DNA of 64,000 nucleotides from a phage. This document shows, in pieces, positions 1,130 to 63,921 of the stretch. The stretch lies in NCBI GenBank assembly GCA_027337125.1, contig GCA_027337125.1_3057.1; one strand, written 5' to 3'. Numbering within the stretch: the first letter of the stretch is position 1; each line of letters begins with the position of its first letter. The notes under the pieces are model-generated. The model ran no database searches and was not told the origin of the DNA. It saw nothing but the letters and a program-made list of their open reading frames with translations. Made by a program: the position numbers and the translations under genes.

Positions 1130-1201
1130 TTTCACAAAGTTGTTTACACGTTGATGAGGTAGTGATACTATTATCTCATCAAAATTAATTAGGAAAATAA
1201 A

Positions 1202-1489
1202 ATGAAAACTTTCAAAGAATTTACTTCTACAACTACCCCGGTTTCTACTATTACTGAAGCTACTCTTACTTCTGAAGTTATTAAAGCAAATAAAGGACGA
1301 GAAGGTAAACCAATGATTAGTTTGGTTGATGGCGAAGAAATCAAAGGTACTGTTTACCTAGGTGATGGGTGGTCTGCTAAAAAGGATGGTGCTACAATCA
1401 TTATCTCTCCTGCTGAAGAAACTGCGTTGTTTAAAGCTAAACACATTTCTGCGGCACATCTCAAGATTATTGCTAAAAATCTTTTGTAA
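1202..1489 (+). CDS. internal head protein at the ipI locus, with capsid-targeting N-terminus
   Basis: N-terminus MKTFKEF resembles T4 CTS (MKTYQEF); 95 aa; early promoter upstream; T4 IPI is an anti-restriction protein. Confidence 0.65.
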   Translation: MKTFKEFTSTTTPVSTITEATLTSEVIKANKGREGKPMISLVDGEEIKGTVYLGDGWSAKKDGATIIISPAEETALFKAKHISAAHLKIIAKNLL

Positions 1490-1565
1490 TAAATATTTCA
1501 CAAAGTTGTTTACAGTAGGGTAGTAGTGTGATACTATTACCCTATCAACTACTGAGGAGAATAAA

Positions 1566-2543: not shown

Positions 2544-2616
2544 TGGGAATTAGCCAAGTTGGTAAGGCATAGCACTTTGACTGCTAGATGCAAAGGTTCG
2601 AGTCCTTTATTCCCAG
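2544..2616 (+). tRNA. tRNA-Gln (anticodon TTG)
   Basis: Cloverleaf read by eye: acceptor TGGGAAT/ATTCCCA, T-arm GGTTCGAGTCC, anticodon loop CTTTGAC. Confidence 0.85.
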
Positions 2617-2617
2617 C

Positions 2618-2704
2618 GCGAGAATGGTCAAATTGGTAAAGGCACAGCACTTAAAATGCTGCGGAATGATTTCCTTGTGGGTTCGAGTCCCACTTCTCGT
2701 ACCA
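2618..2704 (+). tRNA. tRNA-Leu (anticodon TAA), long variable arm, CCA encoded
   Basis: Acceptor GCGAGAA/TTCTCGT, anticodon loop CTTAAAA, T-arm GGTTCGAGTCC, 3' ACCA. Confidence 0.85.
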
Positions 2705-2710
2705 AAGTTT

Positions 2711-2782
<72 letters not shown>

Positions 2783-2794
2783 AAATTTAATTTA

Positions 2795-2868
2795 CTCCGT
2801 GTAGCTCAGTTTGGTAGAGCGTCTGCTTTGGGAGCAGAATGTCGCAGGTTCAAATCCTGCCACGGAGA
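2795..2868 (+). tRNA. tRNA-Pro (anticodon TGG)
   Basis: Acceptor CTCCGTG/CACGGAG, anticodon loop TTTGGGA, T-arm GGTTCAAATCC. Confidence 0.85.
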
Positions 2869-2870
2869 CT

Positions 2871-2957
2871 GGAGGCGTGGCAGAGTGGTTTAATGCACCG
2901 GTCTTGAAAACCGGCAGTCGCTCCGGCGACTCATAGGTTCAAATCCTATCGCCTCCG
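2871..2957 (+). tRNA. tRNA-Ser (anticodon TGA), long variable arm
   Basis: Acceptor GGAGGCG/CGCCTCC, anticodon loop CTTGAAA, T-arm GGTTCAAATCC. Confidence 0.85.
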
Positions 2958-2964
2958 TAATTTC

Positions 2965-3037
2965 GCTGATTTAGCTCAGTAGGTAGAGCACCTCACTTGT
3001 AATGAGGATGTCGGCGGTTCGATTCCGTCAATCAGCA
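2965..3037 (+). tRNA. tRNA-Thr (anticodon TGT)
   Basis: Acceptor GCTGATT/AATCAGC, anticodon loop CTTGTAA, T-arm GGTTCGATTCC. Confidence 0.85.
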
Positions 3038-3043
3038 TATCAA

Positions 3044-3115
3044 GGCCCTGTAGCTGGAAGGTTCAAGCAAGCGACTCATAATCGCCAGATGGTGGTTCAA
3101 TTCCACCCAGGGCCA
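3044..3115 (+). tRNA. tRNA-Ile (anticodon CAT, lysidine-type as in T4)
   Basis: Acceptor GGCCCTG/CAGGGCC, anticodon loop TCATAAT, T-arm GGTTCAATTCC. Confidence 0.8.
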
Positions 3116-3156: not shown

Positions 3157-3822
3157 ATGTTCCATTACATTTATAAAATAACAAATAAAATTAATAATAA
3201 AATCTATATAGGCGCTCATTCTACCGAAAATTTAGATGATGGATATATGGGTTCTGGTAAATTATTAAAAAGAGCCCAAGATAAATATGGTATAGAAAAT
3301 TTTTCTAAAGAAATATTAGAGTTCTTTGACGATAAAACCTCTATGTTTGAGTCAGAAAAGAATATTGTGACTGAAGAGTTTTTAAAGCGCCCTGATGTTT
3401 ATAATTTGAAATTAGGTGGTGAAGGTGGTTGGGACCATTTAAACACTAAAGAATATTTGGATAAAAAGAAAGAAGCTTCCTTAAAAGGAGCTGCCGCTTT
3501 TAAAACCAGATTTGAGAACGACCCAGACCTTAAAGAAAAATATCGTAAAATGGGTTCAGAAAGGTTTAAACAGCTTTGGGATAATCCTAAGTATAGAGAG
3601 AAATTTTTAAATACTAAATCTTTCTTGGGTAAGACCCATACTCCTGAAACTATTAATAAAATGAAAGAATCTCACGCCAGAAATAAACACCAACAAGGTG
3701 AAAAGAATTCCCAATTTGGCATGATGTGGATTCATTCATTAGATGAAAAAGTTTCTAAACGTATTAAGAAAACTGACCCAATTCCAGAAGGATGGTTTAA
3801 AGGTCGAAAAATGAAATTTTAA
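3157..3822 (+). CDS. segB: GIY-YIG homing endonuclease SegB-like, inside tRNA cluster
   Basis: N-terminal GIY-YIG motif (IYKITNKINNKIYIGAH); sits between tRNA subclusters as T4 segB does. Confidence 0.8.
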   Translation: MFHYIYKITNKINNKIYIGAHSTENLDDGYMGSGKLLKRAQDKYGIENFSKEILEFFDDKTSMFESEKNIVTEEFLKRPDVYNLKLGGEGGWDHLNTKEYLDKKKEASLKGAAAFKTRFENDPDLKEKYRKMGSERFKQLWDNPKYREKFLNTKSFLGKTHTPETINKMKESHARNKHQQGEKNSQFGMMWIHSLDEKVSKRIKKTDPIPEGWFKGRKMKF

Positions 3823-3825
3823 TTA

Positions 3826-3902
<77 letters not shown>

Positions 3903-4244
3903 GACAAGAAACCGGGTCGCTACCGGTAAGTCGTCGGACTGATGTTCCCTGAGTAAGGAATTGCGTTAATAATCTTTGTGTTTATTGATGCCCTCTTACA
4001 TCACAGCAGAAACGGCGCACCGAATTATCGATTCGAGGAAATATCTTTGCCGTAAGCCGAGTAGCGTTTTTGACGGAACGTTCGGATATGGTCGAGATGT
4101 GGCCTTTTAAAAATATTGAGTAGCGTCAACTACTTAATAACCGGGTTCGAATCCCGGCGTTTCGTACAAACACTTGCCTTAGCAGGTGGAACCCGACAAG
4201 GTTGCCGCAAGGCTTAGCCCCGACCGAAAGGTTGGGGCTTTTTA
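3903..4244 (+). ncRNA. stable small RNAs downstream of tRNA-Arg (T4 species 1/2, rnaC/rnaD-like); boundaries uncertain
   Basis: No ORF; GC-richer structured segment with tRNA-like T-arm (GGTTCGAATCC) ending in hairpin plus T-run; matches T4 rnaC/rnaD position. Confidence 0.45.
4216..4244 (+). terminator. rho-independent terminator closing the tRNA/stable RNA unit
   Basis: AGCCCCGACC-GAAA-GGTTGGGGCT hairpin followed by TTTTT. Confidence 0.55.
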
Positions 4245-4450
4245 GTATCTAGGCCTTTCTGGACCTCTCTAGGCATCATTTAGTTTCTACCCTTTATAAT
4301 ATATTATCTTATCTTTTAATTGTCCCTCCCTGCCCTAGAATTCCCTAAAACTTTTTAAAAATTTTTTCACAAAACTATTTACATCCCTGTTCTTCCATGG
4401 TACTATACAACTATCAACTACTGATACAGAAAAACAACTTGGATAATAAA

Positions 4451-4714
4451 ATGGATAATTACGGCGAACTGTTCAACTTCTTTATGAAATGTGTTTCAGA
4501 AGATTTCGGTCGTACGGTGAATGATATTAAAGTTATCGGTCCTGACCATCCGATGTTTGAAACTTACGCAGTAATGGGTAATGAAGATGGTCAGTGGTAT
4601 ACTGTAAAGGTTGTGATTAACATGTTTACTGCTGAAGGTTATGTTAAACTGTCTTCTAAAGTTTACCACGATAACGACGAAATCGCAGAAGAATATTTCA
4701 ATAATATGAAATAA
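4451..4714 (+). CDS. hypothetical protein
   Basis: Start moved to MDNYGE: the ORF-track start lies inside the promoter -10; 88 aa. Confidence 0.55.
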   Translation: MDNYGELFNFFMKCVSEDFGRTVNDIKVIGPDHPMFETYAVMGNEDGQWYTVKVVINMFTAEGYVKLSSKVYHDNDEIAEEYFNNMK

Positions 4715-7388: not shown

Positions 7389-8308
<920 letters not shown>

Positions 8309-10484: not shown

Positions 10485-10533
10485 GTTTACTTTTCCTCTT
10501 GACTGTGGTATAATTTTTCTATCAGTTAAGAGG
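10485..10533 (+). promoter_or_regulatory. early promoter embedded in inverted repeat whose 3' arm covers the regB Shine-Dalgarno
   Basis: GTTTAC-17 bp-TATAAT; arms CCTCTTGACTG / CAGTTAAGAGG (10 pairs plus one G-T). Confidence 0.6.
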
Positions 10534-10541
10534 AGAATAAC

Positions 10542-11003
10542 ATGACTATCAACACAGAAGTTTTTATCCGTCGAAATAAGCTCCGTCGTCACTTTGAGTC
10601 GGAGTTTCGTCAAATTAACAATGAGATTCGTGAGGCATCAAAAGCAGCAGGGGTCTCATCGTTTCATCTAAAATATTCTCAACATCTTCTTGATCGTGCA
10701 ATTCAACGGGAGATTGATGAGACATATGTTTTTGAATTATTCCATAAAATAAAAGACCATGTTTTAGAAGTTAATGAATTCCTAAGTATGCCTCCGCGTC
10801 CTGACATTAATGAGGATTTTATTGATGGGGTTGAATATCGTCCTGGGCGTTTAGAAATCACCGATGGAAATCTTTGGCTTGGATTTACAGTTTGTAAACC
10901 TAACGAGAAGTTCAAAGACCCGTCACTTCAGTGCAGGATGGCAATTATCAACAGTCGTCGTTTACCGGGAAAGGCTTCTAAAGCAGTAATTAAAACTCAA
11001 TGA
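10542..11003 (+). CDS. regB: RegB sequence-specific endoribonuclease
   Basis: 153 aa, matches recalled T4 RegB (MTINTEVFIRRNKLRRHFESEFRQ...). Confidence 0.85.
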   Translation: MTINTEVFIRRNKLRRHFESEFRQINNEIREASKAAGVSSFHLKYSQHLLDRAIQREIDETYVFELFHKIKDHVLEVNEFLSMPPRPDINEDFIDGVEYRPGRLEITDGNLWLGFTVCKPNEKFKDPSLQCRMAIINSRRLPGKASKAVIKTQ

Positions 11004-14276: not shown

Positions 14277-14300
14277 TAGTCTCCTTCGGGAGACTTTTTT
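14277..14300 (+). terminator. rho-independent terminator
   Basis: AGTCTCC-TTCG-GGAGACT hairpin plus TTTTTT, immediately followed by an early promoter. Confidence 0.65.
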
Positions 14301-14310
14301 CATTTTACCA

Positions 14311-15122: not shown

Positions 15123-15152
15123 GTTTACAAGTTGGCAAGGTTATGGTATAGT
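15123..15152 (+). promoter_or_regulatory. early promoter
   Basis: GTTTAC-17 bp-TATAGT. Confidence 0.5.
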
Positions 15153-15180
15153 AATCTTGTCAACTGCCAAGGAGAAGAGA

Positions 15181-17692: not shown

Positions 17693-17718
17693 AGGGAGCC
17701 TTCGGGCTCCCTTTTTTT
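17693..17718 (+). terminator. rho-independent terminator
   Basis: AGGGAGCC-TTCG-GGCTCCCT hairpin plus TTTTTTT. Confidence 0.65.
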
Positions 17719-17742
17719 ATTTCAAAATTTTTTCATAAAACA

Positions 17743-19878: not shown

Positions 19879-19931
19879 GTTTACAAGACTGTTCCTCTGT
19901 GGTACTATACAACTATCAACTACGGAGGAAC
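19879..19931 (+). promoter_or_regulatory. early promoter inside inverted repeat whose 3' arm covers the SD
   Basis: GTTTAC-17-TACTAT; arms GTTCCTC / GAGGAAC (the latter is the SD of the 19937 gene). Confidence 0.6.
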
Positions 19932-19936
19932 ACAAA

Positions 19937-20934: not shown

Positions 20935-21825
20935 ATGTCAGTGGTAATTAATAATGTCAATGCAGTAATTAAATCTTTAGTTAATAAAAAAATGATGAAT
21001 GAATGGACTGTATTTCGTCGTGGAGAGCCAGATAAATTTTTTCATAGATTTAACCCAACTTTGGATTTGAATGTTATTGACAGAGATGTTCATGCCGAAA
21101 TTTTAGATAAGTTTAAAGTTGATATTGGCTTTGGATTAGAAAAACATTTACAGCGAACAAATGGGTCTGGAATGAGTTTATCTAATCGCATTATGAAAGC
21201 CCTTAATAAAATTGGAGCATTGTCTCGTATTAATGCGAGTGAAATCCTTCGCAATTATAATAAAGGATATGACCTTTATGATCGACTAATGCCGAAGTTA
21301 TCATTTGACCAAATGATAGCAGATTTGTGGGAAAATCAACGACGATTATTAGCATTAGGCGCTCGATTAGCTAAAGGTCTAGATAAACAAATGATTTTTA
21401 AGACCAATAATACAGAAGACCTTAAATGCTTTAAATTTAGTATTCGCGGAGATGATTATTATATCAGAGCTCGCTCTACAGATTATGTTAATATGGGGCA
21501 TCATCTCTGTTTAGCTTTTGAAGTTTTAAAAGAAGCTGGAACATTAGAATATTCATCTGGTGCAAAATGTCCAATTGGTTCAAGTTGTATTTTAATTTAT
21601 CGCCCTGATGAATCCAGTTCATCTAAATTACCTACAAAACCTGTACCAGTTCGTAGTAACGAAAAACATTCTGAACAAATTGATTATTTTAATAAGCAGA
21701 TTGAAGAGCTGAATATTTCTATTCAACAATATGATGATGAAATTTTTAGACTATCTGGATTGAGTAGTAAAGCTAAATCTGAGCGTGAAAAGTTAATTAA
21801 AATTGTTGATTTACTTAAATCTTAA
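20935..21825 (+). CDS. hypothetical protein with C-terminal coiled coil
   Basis: ATG after GAGTGAGGAAAAT; ORF-track start is GTG. Confidence 0.55.
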   Translation: MSVVINNVNAVIKSLVNKKMMNEWTVFRRGEPDKFFHRFNPTLDLNVIDRDVHAEILDKFKVDIGFGLEKHLQRTNGSGMSLSNRIMKALNKIGALSRINASEILRNYNKGYDLYDRLMPKLSFDQMIADLWENQRRLLALGARLAKGLDKQMIFKTNNTEDLKCFKFSIRGDDYYIRARSTDYVNMGHHLCLAFEVLKEAGTLEYSSGAKCPIGSSCILIYRPDESSSSKLPTKPVPVRSNEKHSEQIDYFNKQIEELNISIQQYDDEIFRLSGLSSKAKSEREKLIKIVDLLKS

Positions 21826-25197: not shown

Positions 25198-25320
25198 AAC
25201 CCTGGTGGGCGGCTAGATGGGAAACTGTAGAGCCAGAGCCGGAAGAACCGGTTTACACTGATGAAGAAACAGTATATAATGAACCAACGATAAACGACTT
25301 AATTGATATGGAGATGGGAT

Positions 25321-32678: not shown

Positions 32679-32756
32679 CTGATATCCTCTATGCTTTAAG
32701 ATAGATCTTCAAATATTATGATATAATAGATCTATGAATTGAGCTAAGAGGTGAAA

Positions 32757-44892: not shown

Positions 44893-44914
44893 AGGGACCT
44901 CCAGGTCCCTTTTT
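44893..44914 (+). terminator. rho-independent terminator
   Basis: AGGGACC-tcca-GGTCCCT hairpin plus TTTTT. Confidence 0.6.
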
Positions 44915-44997
44915 CATACAAGTAATATAAATCTATACTTATGAAAAAGAGATGATTCTGGACCCTTTGGATTCCCTAAAAATTTTTTCACAAAACT

Positions 44998-50723: not shown

Positions 50724-50760
50724 TTTACAAGCTGACAAGACTATGGTATAGTAGTCTTGT
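50723..50760 (+). promoter_or_regulatory. early promoter with -10 bracketed by 8-bp inverted repeat
   Basis: GTTTAC-17-TATAGT; arms ACAAGACT / AGTCTTGT. Confidence 0.6.
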
Positions 50761-50781
50761 TGGTTAAATGAGGAGATCGTT

Positions 50782-50965: not shown

Positions 50966-51208
50966 ATGCACATTGTTTTATTTAAACCTACTCCGTATAA
51001 TGTCAAGAAAAATACTCAATTCAAAGCACTTGTTGCAGATACGTGGGAATTGGTGTTAGATATTCCAGCAGAAGAAAGTCCTCCATTTGGTCGAGTGGAA
51101 TTTATTAAGTTTGCTGTGCGCCCTACGAAGCGACAGATTCGCCAATGCAAAAGATACTTTCGTAAAATCGTCAAGTTAGAGAAACAGTTATTGATGCTAG
51201 TAAAATAG
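50966..51208 (+). CDS. hypothetical basic protein (61.4 position; candidate anti-toxin factor)
   Basis: ATG after GAGGATAAT; 80 aa, Lys/Arg-rich C-terminus; sits in dmd-sp island. Confidence 0.5.
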   Translation: MHIVLFKPTPYNVKKNTQFKALVADTWELVLDIPAEESPPFGRVEFIKFAVRPTKRQIRQCKRYFRKIVKLEKQLLMLVK

Positions 51209-51210
51209 TA

Positions 51211-51252
51211 GTTTACAAGCTGATAGAGTTGTGTTATAGTAATTCTATCAGC
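51211..51252 (+). promoter_or_regulatory. early promoter with -10 bracketed by 9-bp inverted repeat
   Basis: GTTTAC-17-TATAGT; arms GCTGATAGA / TCTATCAGC. Confidence 0.6.
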
Positions 51253-51271
51253 TAATCGTGGAGAAAAGAAA

Positions 51272-51526
51272 ATGATGCTAGTTAATAGAGAATATCAGTT
51301 TAAATCAGAAGAAGATTTGGAAAAATTCGCGAGTGGTTGTGAACTGAATAGACGCACAGCTAAAGTCATAGGATTAAAACCCTTTACAGTTCTAGATTGT
51401 GAAGTTTCTAAATTCCGCAGAGGGTGTTCTATTAGCGGTCATGCTCTGGTTGATGGGAACACATTTTTCTTTGTTTTTAGCGTCAGAGAACTTTTATTGA
51501 TTAACGAACTTGAGGAAATAAAATAG
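51272..51526 (+). CDS. hypothetical protein
   Basis: 84-aa ORF with GGAG SD. Confidence 0.5.
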   Translation: MMLVNREYQFKSEEDLEKFASGCELNRRTAKVIGLKPFTVLDCEVSKFRRGCSISGHALVDGNTFFFVFSVRELLLINELEEIK

Positions 51527-55632: not shown

Positions 55633-55638
55633 ATTCAG

Positions 55639-55662
55639 GGACTCCTTCGGGAGTCCTTTTTT
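55639..55662 (+). terminator. rho-independent terminator
   Basis: GGACTCC-TTCG-GGAGTCC hairpin plus TTTTTT. Confidence 0.65.
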
Positions 55663-55672
55663 CATTTTACCG

Positions 55673-57780: not shown

Positions 57781-57836
57781 GTTTACTTTCCTTTCTAACG
57801 ATGATATGATAGCTTCTGAAGTATACGGAGGCTATC
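57781..57836 (+). promoter_or_regulatory. early promoter with inverted repeat flanking SD
   Basis: GTTTAC-17-TATGAT; arms GATAGC / GCTATC enclosing TACGGAGG SD. Confidence 0.5.
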
Positions 57837-58460
57837 ATGATTATTAATCTTGCAGATGTTGAACAGTTATCTATAAAAGCTGAAAGCGTTGATTTTCAAT
57901 ATGATATGTATAAAAAGGTCTGTGAAAAATTTACTGACTTTGAACAGTCAATTCTTTGGCAATGTATGGAAGCCAAAAAGAATGAAGCTCTTCATCGGCA
58001 GTTGAATAAAATCATTAAAAAGCATTTAACTAAATCACCTTATCAGCTATATCGTGGTATATCAAAATCGACAAAAGAACTCATTAAAGATTTACAAGTC
58101 GGAGAAGTGTTTTCAACGAACAGAGTAGATTCATTTACTACTAGTTTGCACACAGCGTGTTCTTTTTCTTATGCTGAATATTTTACTGAAACAATACTTC
58201 GCTTAAAAACTGATAAAGCTTTTAATTACTCTGACCATATCAGCGATATTATACTTTCTTCTCCTAATACTGAGTTTAAGTATACATATGAAGATACTGA
58301 TGGATTAGATTCAGAACGTACTGATAACTTAATGATGATTGTGCGTGAACAAGAATGGATGATTCCAATTGGAAAGTATAAAATAACTTCTATTTCAAAA
58401 GAAAAATTACATGATTCATTTGGAACATTTAAAGTGTATGATATTGAGGTAGTTGAATGA
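57837..58460 (+). CDS. modB: ADP-ribosyltransferase ModB-like
   Basis: 207 aa; ART signature R (YRGIS), S-T-x, and EQEWMIP (Q/E-x-E). Confidence 0.65.
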   Translation: MIINLADVEQLSIKAESVDFQYDMYKKVCEKFTDFEQSILWQCMEAKKNEALHRQLNKIIKKHLTKSPYQLYRGISKSTKELIKDLQVGEVFSTNRVDSFTTSLHTACSFSYAEYFTETILRLKTDKAFNYSDHISDIILSSPNTEFKYTYEDTDGLDSERTDNLMMIVREQEWMIPIGKYKITSISKEKLHDSFGTFKVYDIEVVE

Positions 58461-62742: not shown

Positions 62743-62772
62743 GTTTACTTCCTCGGTTAGTTGTGGTATTAT
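62743..62772 (+). promoter_or_regulatory. early promoter
   Basis: GTTTAC-17 bp-TATTAT. Confidence 0.55.
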
Positions 62773-62799
62773 AACACCATAGTTACTGAGGATAATAAA

Positions 62800-63847: not shown

Positions 63848-63883
63848 GTTTACAAACTCTTGGGACCAGAGTATAATGGTCCC
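63848..63883 (+). promoter_or_regulatory. early promoter with -10 bracketed by inverted repeat
   Basis: GTTTAC-17-TATAAT; arms GGGACC / GGTCCC. Confidence 0.55.
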
Positions 63884-63921
63884 GCGGAGTATAAAATCTT
63901 TTTAACAAGTGAGAGATAACT

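Follow-up and report, generated by a model that had tools for sequence, protein, structure and literature searches.

Stem-loops interleaved with the early promoters of a T4-like phage and their relation to promoter-early stem-loop cassettes

Between positions 1142 and 1544 of a 64,000-nucleotide (nt) stretch of phage DNA (GenBank assembly GCA_027337125.1, contig GCA_027337125.1_3057.1; the whole stretch is called the window below), the internal head protein gene ipI lies between two near-duplicate early promoters, each of which carries an inverted repeat around its -10 hexamer. The promoters differ from one another in the arms of these repeats. What keeps the arms complementary while their sequence changes, and in which molecule do they pair? 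An original prediction, made from the sequence alone, held that many early promoters of the window share this layout and that selection acts on a secondary structure in DNA or RNA rather than on sequence. We find that the hairpins are real and under selection and that the selected structure is most simply sense-strand RNA. The elements are very probably promoter-early stem-loop (PeSL) cassettes of T4-type phages, a feature already known (Arbiol 2010; Comeau 2014) and noted first at this internal protein (IP) locus (Repoila 1994). Taken as a whole, the reading that we favour, with moderate confidence, is that of a PeSL-type cassette equipped with an insulating RNA hairpin.

The window belongs to a Tequatrovirus (T4-like) phage: the 1.5 kb around the locus are 95-99% identical to Tequatrovirus genomes, with 99% identity to vB_EcoM-UFV13 and 95% to T4, and the + strand of the window is the T4 early-gene strand. 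Annotation transfer from T4T identified ipI and its neighbours, 57B upstream and trna.4, the tRNA cluster and segB downstream. The ipI early promoter (GTTTAC ... TACTAT, 1142-1171; this and all other features are on the + strand unless stated) was found by pattern match, and its orthologous position in T4T precedes ipI. The ipI open reading frame (ORF; 1202-1489, from the ORF list and the T4T annotation) forms a cassette between both promoters, and the trna.4 early promoter (1508-1537, also a pattern match) is a near-duplicate of the first except in the arms.

Stems around the -10 hexamer

Sites matching GTTTAC-N18-TAnnnT (18 nt with GTTTAC as the hexamer, 17 when the -35 is read as TTTACn) occur 21 times on the + strand of the window and once on the - strand, against 2.65 expected. 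About 19 of the 21 are intergenic and accompanied by a Shine-Dalgarno sequence (SD) and an ATG, which lie some 20-50 nt from the -10 at all promoters except the two matches inside coding sequence, at 25251 and 31392. A position-weight scan added promoters 4377 and 4717 and gave no match on the - strand. A/T-rich upstream blocks such as aatttcacaaagtt are conserved among the promoters, and the window consensus equals the published PST/T4 consensus TTTACW-N17-TAYWAT (PMC4122927).

All twelve arms quoted in the original prediction were found at the positions and with the sequences given there. The inverted repeats around the -10 were likewise borne out; their description as perfect cores of 6-9 base pairs (bp) understates them, as the embedded stems reach 13-16 bp including G.U pairs, with folding energies of -15 to -22.4 kcal/mol and z-scores of -3.1 to -5.5 against dinucleotide shuffles. 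Perfect Watson-Crick stems were then counted between 18 nt upstream and 20 nt downstream of the -10, and in the same way at three sets of controls: other TAnnnT hexamers (1706), -10-like hexamers (206) and arbitrary positions (9115). Stems of at least 7 bp were present at 5/21 promoters versus 2.4-2.7% of control sites, and stems of at least 8 bp at 3/21 versus 0.6-1.5%; in this comparison with random hexamers, stems are about ten times commoner at the 21 early promoters. When spacers were combined with the downstream region of another promoter, at least 7 bp could be formed in 3.6% of pairs, versus 6 of the 21 native combinations. An embedded hairpin with a folding energy difference (ddG) of -15 kcal/mol or lower was found at 10 of 20 intergenic promoters (z -3 to -5.5), and another 6-7 promoters have a terminator hairpin upstream instead. 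Controls with chimeric spacers were effective in the window and blunted in RB69, because many RB69 promoters carry the same arms.

In order to follow the pairing in a sample free of selection for hairpins, we used 127 unique promoters gathered regardless of structure from the window, from the early region of RB69 and from about 100 IMG/VR loci. A single pairing register rises above the partner-permuted controls (i+j = 49 counted from the G of GTTTAC, z = 6.2), while the 23 other registers stay at |z| <= 2.7. In the hairpins of this register, called class I, the 5' arm occupies offsets 7-22, that is the -35/-10 spacer from about -30 to -15; the loop consists of 4 nt around the start of the -10; and the 3' arm covers offsets 27-42, from the last three -10 bases to about +6. 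Conserved promoter bases supply the top three pairs, in which the 'rTG' of the extended -10 faces the last three bases of the hexamer; these pairs form in 76-117 of the 127 promoters. Co-evolution is required of the flanks of the class I stem only. The T4 early promoter core is itself self-complementary at offsets 20-29 (e.g. 1162-1171), where rTG meets the end of TAyTAT or TATAGT, and TACTAT and TATAGT, two -10 variants that are frequent despite departing from the consensus, may be favoured as extensions of the stem.

Changes between copies and orthologues maintain the pairing. Within the stems, the window differs from T4 by G-C to G.U and A-U to G.U changes and by loss of a terminal pair. 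The promoter downstream of gene 41 carries five different arm pairs across lineages: AGCTGACAAGACT/AGTCTTGTTGGTT, GTGTAGGAGCG/(T)GCTCCTACAC, TGGTAGGGCTA/TAGCCCTACCA, TGATAGGGCTA/TAGCCCTATCA and TGATAGGACTG/(T)GGTCCTATCA. The third and fourth of these are linked by a stepwise series of G-C, G.U and A-U pairs, from TGGTAGGG/CCCTACCA in L051 through the G.U intermediate of L054 to TGATAGGG/CCCTATCA in L053. Similar arm diversity is seen across phages at the IP locus. In a gapless alignment of 21 hairpin-bearing promoters, both sides have changed in 14 of 16 pairs, and 80.4% of cells are paired, compared to 66.7% after shuffling (a level reached in 0 of 500 shuffles) and 31-58% with the partner slid by 1-3 columns. 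These 21 promoters were chosen for their hairpins, the unbiased test being the register scan on the 127 unselected ones. The claims that near-duplicate promoters carry different yet complementary arms, and that complementarity is kept where arms differ across lineages, thus hold both between copies and between orthologues, and the single enriched register together with the double changes upholds selection for pairing rather than for sequence. The hairpin is confirmed as a real feature under selection.

Six class I examples were folded and gave -15.5 to -19.7 kcal/mol, with z-scores of -3.1 to -5.4 against dinucleotide shuffles. The hairpin of the ipI promoter (1151-1182; arms 1151-1164 and 1169-1182, loop 1165-1168) has 14 bp including G.U, -15.5 kcal/mol and z -4.5; GATGAG/CTCATC is its core, and the window has a G.U where the T4 orthologue has a G-C. 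The hairpin of the trna.4 promoter (1515-1545; arms 1515-1528 and 1532-1545, loop 1529-1531; -17.8 kcal/mol, z -3.1) is in a shifted register (i+j = 44), with the entire -10 hexamer within the 3' arm. At promoter 15123, upstream of a mobD.2-like ORF, the hairpin (15130-15165; -19.0 kcal/mol, z -5.4) corresponds to a perfect 13 bp stem in the T4 orthologue, and two A-to-G changes give G.U pairs in the window. The others belong to promoter 50723 between gene 41 and dmd (50730-50765; -18.9 kcal/mol, z -4.9), promoter 51211, which lies at a T4T synteny break (51218-51253; -18.0 kcal/mol, z -4.8), and promoter 63848, with the core GGGACC/GGTCCC (63856-63890; -19.7 kcal/mol, z -4.2).

All the examples quoted in the original prediction are GTTTAC promoters except one. 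The perfect 8 bp repeat ATAGATCT/AGATCTAT around TATAAT at 32701-32735, read from the sequence, has no GTTTAC; upstream lies a TGCTTTA box whose spacing is non-canonical, and we made no confident assignment of this repeat to a promoter class. The segment 32690-32735 contains two BglII-like AGATCT palindromes, and the TGCTTTA, a MotA-like box, lies 23 nt upstream. A regex scan for middle promoters with a MotA box revealed no consistent bracketing hairpins.

Strandedness of the selected structure

The original prediction left open whether DNA or RNA is folded. Interior mismatches provide a strand-specific mark: in the unique native helices of the 127 promoters we counted 20 G.T, 2 A.C and 5 others, as against 58 G.T and 44 A.C in helices formed between non-partner promoters (binomial p ~0.0008). 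Helices were called for this count with lowered penalties and all mismatch types scored alike, a strict penalty having yielded too few mismatches. The folding energies show the same asymmetry, the sense strand folding at -15.5 to -19 kcal/mol and the antisense strand of these segments at only -8.5 to -10. A cruciform, or a protein site in duplex DNA, would be strand-symmetric. The strand-asymmetric mismatches and folding therefore designate the sense strand as the selected object, most simply in the form of RNA, and speak against a cruciform; formally, the non-template DNA strand could also fold into such a hairpin while single-stranded. In phages of the N4 type, DNA hairpin promoters are recognised by a dedicated virion RNA polymerase. 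We rejected such a hairpin promoter or cruciform for the window, where the promoters are standard -35/-10 sigma-70 promoters, G.T outnumbers A.C by 20 to 2 and the antisense folds about half as strongly.

The position of the arms relative to the start of transcription separates two kinds of RNA. With +1 assumed about 7 nt after the -10, following general sigma-70 promoter geometry, RNA folded from the expected start gave -4.7 to 0 kcal/mol and is nearly unfolded, while RNA from the -35 onward gave -15 to -24 kcal/mol. The 5' arm is upstream of the start site and the hairpin is absent from promoter-initiated RNA, in agreement with what had been proposed. Given the assumed start site, the structures should be confined to RNA reading in from upstream: only transcripts begun further upstream and crossing the promoter would carry both arms.

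Hairpins that pair the Shine-Dalgarno sequence

In a second layout, class II, a T/C-rich spacer pairs with the SD of the downstream gene. The strongest example is at the regB promoter (10485), where spacer TTTTCCTCTTGACTG pairs with CAGTTAAGAGGAGAA, which includes the regB SD (10491-10537; 15 bp, -22.4 kcal/mol, z -5.5), and the predicted probability that the SD is paired with bases preceding the start is 1.00. At the nrdC.8 promoter (19879), TGTTCCTCTGTGG pairs with CTACGGAGGAACA, again including the SD (19890-19932; 13-14 bp, -20.2 kcal/mol, z -5.1), and at promoter 62743 folding and SD pairing point to TCCTCGGT.../...ACTGAGGA over the SD (62750-62792). Promoter 53331 shows a weaker form of this layout. 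At promoter 57781 the folding joins the -10 region to the downstream SD and AUG (57800-57845); this hairpin is independent of the spacer, as chimeric spacers fold as well. The SD pairing probability is 0.95-1.0 at regB, nrdC.8, 62743, 4377 and, marginally, 53331, above that of 91-100% of shuffled spacers, while in the class I hairpins, including both at 1142-1544, the SD is free (probability 0.01-0.06). Since shuffled spacers often pair the SD too, such pairing with T/C-rich spacers being commonly predicted from composition alone, we limit the class II claim to these few promoters and to the covariation at regB: class II is a supported subset and no general rule.

The regB helix is retained with differing sequence in three lineages, as TTTTCCTCTTGACTG/CAGTTAAGAGGAGAA in T4-type phages, TTCTCCTCTAGTTG/CAACTAGAGGAGAA in RB69 and L090-92, and TCTCCTGTAAG/CTTACAGGAGA in L093-95, and covaries in its SD-distal half. 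The MAFFT alignment of regB promoters mis-registers the T4-type sequence, so that covariation is understated there. Sites with the anti-SD arm are at 10485-10544 in the window, 21303-21361 (- strand) in L105 and 536-603 in L093-L095. The GGAG of the regB SD is also the RegB autoregulatory cleavage site, and the helix of 11-15 bp buries this GGAG that RegB cuts in its own mRNA. A review of post-transcriptional control in T4 makes no mention of a hairpin at regB.

A related arrangement is known from T4 genes e, soc, 49 and I-TevI, whose late promoter lies inside a hairpin that occludes the ribosome-binding site and thereby controls translation (PMC3014915). The class II promoters of regB, nrdC.8 and 62743 resemble it in that the 5' arm contains the promoter or precedes it, and the long RNA hides the SD or AUG. 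They differ in that the internal promoter is early and sigma-70-type rather than late (TATAAATA), so that both RNAs would be made simultaneously; class I hairpins differ further in leaving the SD untouched. The leader hairpin of gene e (lysozyme) was recovered by the same scan at 7391-7440 and served as a positive control. Two TATAAATA late promoters lie inside this hairpin, which pairs the SD; the long RNA folds at -16.2 kcal/mol, the RNAs from the late promoters at 0 to -2.8.

One could extend this principle to all embedded hairpins and read them, instead of as terminators, as a genome-wide 'transcript-origin filter' in which the spacer-coded 5' arm marks where an RNA began. RNA from a gene's own promoter would be open, translatable and cleavable by RegB, and read-through RNA folded; for class II, and above all for regB, translation and RegB sensitivity would be set by the promoter that made the RNA. 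We consider this doubtful as a genome-wide rule. If true, it would carry the e/soc/49/I-TevI principle over to early promoters, and the control of regB would gain a layer not described so far.

Terminators, published cassettes and the proposed role of the hairpin

Intrinsic terminators were searched with a simple rule of our own, a GC hairpin followed by a T-run, which gave no site at the embedded hairpins. A canonical example, AGTCTCC-TTCG-GGAGACT + T5, lies at 14278-14302 just upstream of promoter 14311, which has no hairpin, and equivalent terminators, several with UUCG loops, were found at 4216, 17693, 30854, 44893 and 55637. Each lies 25-140 nt upstream of a promoter lacking an embedded hairpin (4377, 14311, 17743, 30947, 44998 and 55673). 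Five of them (14278-14302, 17693-17719, 55637-55665, 44893-44917 and 4216-4246) are stereotyped, with an AGGGA(G/C)(C)C-type stem, often UUCG, and T5-7; they are probably the 'A-Gn-A loop T-Cn-T' stem-loops of the PST/T4 PeSLs. Within 160 nt upstream, a terminator is present at 0/10 promoters with a strong hairpin (ddG <= -15) compared to 7/10 of the others (Fisher two-sided p = 0.003). At 10/10 strong-hairpin promoters the stop codon of the upstream ORF lies -1 to 18 nt before GTTTAC, and the gap from the upstream ORF differs between both groups (Mann-Whitney p = 0.02).

This complementary distribution is the main argument that the hairpin handles read-through RNA as a separate terminator would. 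Both are stable RNA hairpins at gene ends, and the embedded stems differ in being AT-richer and in lacking the U-run and the UUCG tetraloops of the real terminators of this phage. In our reading, each cassette consists, in order, of an AT-rich upstream element, a strong sigma-70-type early promoter with an interleaved stem-loop, and a ribosome-binding site that serves the small gene behind it. The hairpin would shield the downstream gene from read-through RNA, give the upstream message a structured 3' region or barrier, and replace a separate terminator where room is short. It could act by attenuation or pausing, as a 3' barrier of the upstream message or, in class II (regB, nrdC.8, 62743 and others), by hiding the SD, in which case read-through RNA would be untranslatable and own-promoter RNA translated. 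We give this insulator function about an even chance.

The cassette itself is familiar. The PeSL was defined by Arbiol et al. 2010 from phi1 and RB49: an AT-rich region precedes a sigma-70-like early promoter with its stem-loop, and the SD and start codon belonging to a small ORF complete the element; in one subclass the stem overlaps the -10. These authors read the stem as a terminator or attenuator, one phi1 stem lowering lacZ expression like rrnB T1, and demonstrated exchanges and mini-circles between adjacent PeSLs (PMC2839356). The same parts are present in the window in the same order, in many intergenic copies: strong sigma-70-type promoters with AT-rich upstream regions, a stem-loop within or next to the promoter, a downstream SD and start codon of an ORF, and a link to insertions, deletions and replacements among close relatives. 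Our scan of RB49 shows the same geometry, with the 5' arm in the spacer, the -10 in the loop and the 3' arm directly after (e.g. AAATGGGAGTAG-taaaat-ACTCCCAT). The stems differ in composition: those of RB49 and phi1 are G/C runs, some with T-runs, whereas those of the window are AT-richer, variable and devoid of U-runs. Comeau et al. 2014 described PeSLs in the PST/T4 pair and placed the stems, of the form A-Gn-A/T-Cn-T, just upstream of the promoter (PMC4122927). We infer that these correspond to the canonical terminators at 14278, 17693, 44893 and 55637, not to the stems bracketing the -10. Repoila et al. 1994, as cited in PMC2839356 and PMC4122927, reported repeated early-promoter/stem-loop motifs around the IP genes of T-even phages; according to PMC2839356 these stem-loops were 'weaker, more AT-rich', variable in size and tied to the shuffling of IP genes. 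As far as these citations describe them, locus (ipI between 57B and the tRNA region) and elements are the same as here.

Several points weigh against an insulating role. No U-run follows any of the 10 embedded stems (on inspection, the 8 nt after the stem hold no more than 3 T), which rules them out as canonical intrinsic terminators; they are therefore no textbook terminators, and attenuation, if any, would be weak or factor-dependent. The exclusivity of hairpins and terminators comes from 20 promoters of one genome and our own simple terminator rule. Occlusion of the SD individually exceeds the shuffled-spacer controls at only about 4-5 promoters (4377, 10485, 19879, 62743 and marginally 53331). 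Many RB69 promoters share one arm sequence (GATAGGACTA/TAGTCCTATC), which fits a sequence-specific site or recombinational homogenisation as well. In the literature searched, neither transcript 3' ends nor translation data were found for these sites of T-even phages, and the sole functional test of a PeSL stem-loop concerned one GC-rich phi1 element. The same literature yielded nothing relevant on T4 transcript 3'-end or transcription start site maps or on early promoters with dyad symmetry or inverted repeats, and a review of T4 prereplicative transcription covers Rho and delayed-early RNA, not promoter-embedded hairpins.

The stems could alternatively be determinants of RNA processing or decay, entry sites or barriers for nucleases that set the half-lives of cistrons in polycistronic early RNA through RNase III-like cleavage, a stop to 3' exonucleases or the shielding of GGAG from RegB. 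The sense-strand RNA nature of the structure agrees with this, as does the RegB-cleaved GGAG within the class II helix (RegB biology, PMC3014915), and without a U-run 3' ends would need processing. Stems of 13-16 bp are however short for RNase III, and the proposal overlaps with the insulating hairpin, from which it is hard to tell apart by sequence; as a separate explanation we regard it as rather unlikely.

Exchange of cassettes at the promoters raises another explanation, in which the repeat is a DNA-level recombination signal, either an extruded hairpin or cruciform or a site for a recombination protein that targets cassette shuffling, and the RNA structure is incidental. Across phages, the interval between 57B and trna.4 contains 0-3 promoter-flanked cassettes and measures between 83 and 1667 nt. 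When the window is compared with T4T, homology is lost at promoters 4717, 51211, 51526 and 53331 or no more than about 25 nt away from them, and some 75 nt past promoter 44998; we estimate that chance would produce about 0.8 such coincidences. A cassette at 51189-51526 (ORF 51272-51526, 84 amino acids), between promoters 51211 and 51526, is absent from T4T, where its flanks are about 29 nt apart, which makes it a cassette indel from one promoter to the next; homology breaks of this kind are also present at 4714/4986, 45072/45312 and 53317/53859. Besides this coincidence of promoters with synteny breaks and variable cassette number, the recurrence of one arm sequence at many RB69 promoters speaks for a recombination signal, and Arbiol et al. 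speculate on a stem-loop DNA-binding protein and cite the GGGC/GCCC deletion end-points of Mosig (PMC2839356). Yet the mismatches are strand-asymmetric and the antisense folds weaker, whereas a cruciform needs both strands; the arms vary widely in T4-type phages, hence no common protein site; the exclusivity with terminators is left unexplained; and promoter-core homology alone suffices for recombination. We therefore hold a recombination signal to be improbable. In the insulating-cassette reading, the repeated promoter cores would also act as short homologies for cassette gain, loss and swap. The nearly identical arms of many RB69 early promoters (L104/L105; GATAGGACTA-tgtTATAG-TAGTCCTATC, e.g. 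at record positions 76798, 69240, 67945, 57675 and 19006) suggest a recent spread or homogenisation of one cassette, or a sequence-specific role in that lineage.

Tuning of the promoter at the DNA level, by a symmetry that alters melting or RNA polymerase contacts or that serves a dimeric regulator as operator for early shut-off, is very unlikely. The apex of the stem does consist of bases that function in the promoter, from the TG of the extended -10 and from the -10 hexamer, and early-promoter shut-off is described as incompletely understood (PMC3014915); against this, half of the equally well-matched promoters have no repeat, the G.T bias speaks against a role in duplex DNA or a cruciform, and the arms covary instead of being conserved, which rules out a common protein operator. 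An absence of function, with repeats that arose by chance or as a side effect of duplication and gene conversion between promoter copies, which clearly recombine and homogenise, has just as little to recommend it in view of the tenfold enrichment, the single register, the compensatory and stepwise G-C/G.U/A-U changes between orthologues and the non-random placement relative to terminators and ORF spacing.

T4-type phages have dozens of very strong promoters placed head-to-tail before small accessory genes. The independence of a gene from the one before it and the swapping of such genes between phages matter for the plasticity of phage genomes, the evolution of host range and the engineering of phages, and the PeSL concept already covers both. 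To the published model our data add a quantified covariation, the evidence for sense-strand RNA, a single register that rests on the self-complementary core of the promoter, the complementarity with terminators and a conserved anti-SD arm at regB. The evidence on RNA versus DNA, the terminator exclusivity and the SD occlusion go beyond what the published PeSL work reported. They sharpen the model for T4 specialists and leave the overall picture unchanged.

Some further features of the window deserve mention. Promoters 4377, 14311, 17743, 19879 and 44998 have an identical -10 and initial transcribed block, TACTATacaactatcaact, and three of these five also share the upstream block ccctaaaaatttt(t)tcacaaa(a)ct; the near-identical copies bearing TACTATacaactatcaact mostly lie downstream of terminators and have no embedded hairpin. 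A scan of the whole window at Rfam gathering thresholds returned tRNAs only and no family at the promoters. Eight tRNA genes are located at 2544-3115 and 3826-3899, the first cluster spanning about 570 nt as in T4, and a 221-amino-acid ORF (3157-3822) stands at the place of the T4 homing endonuclease gene segB.

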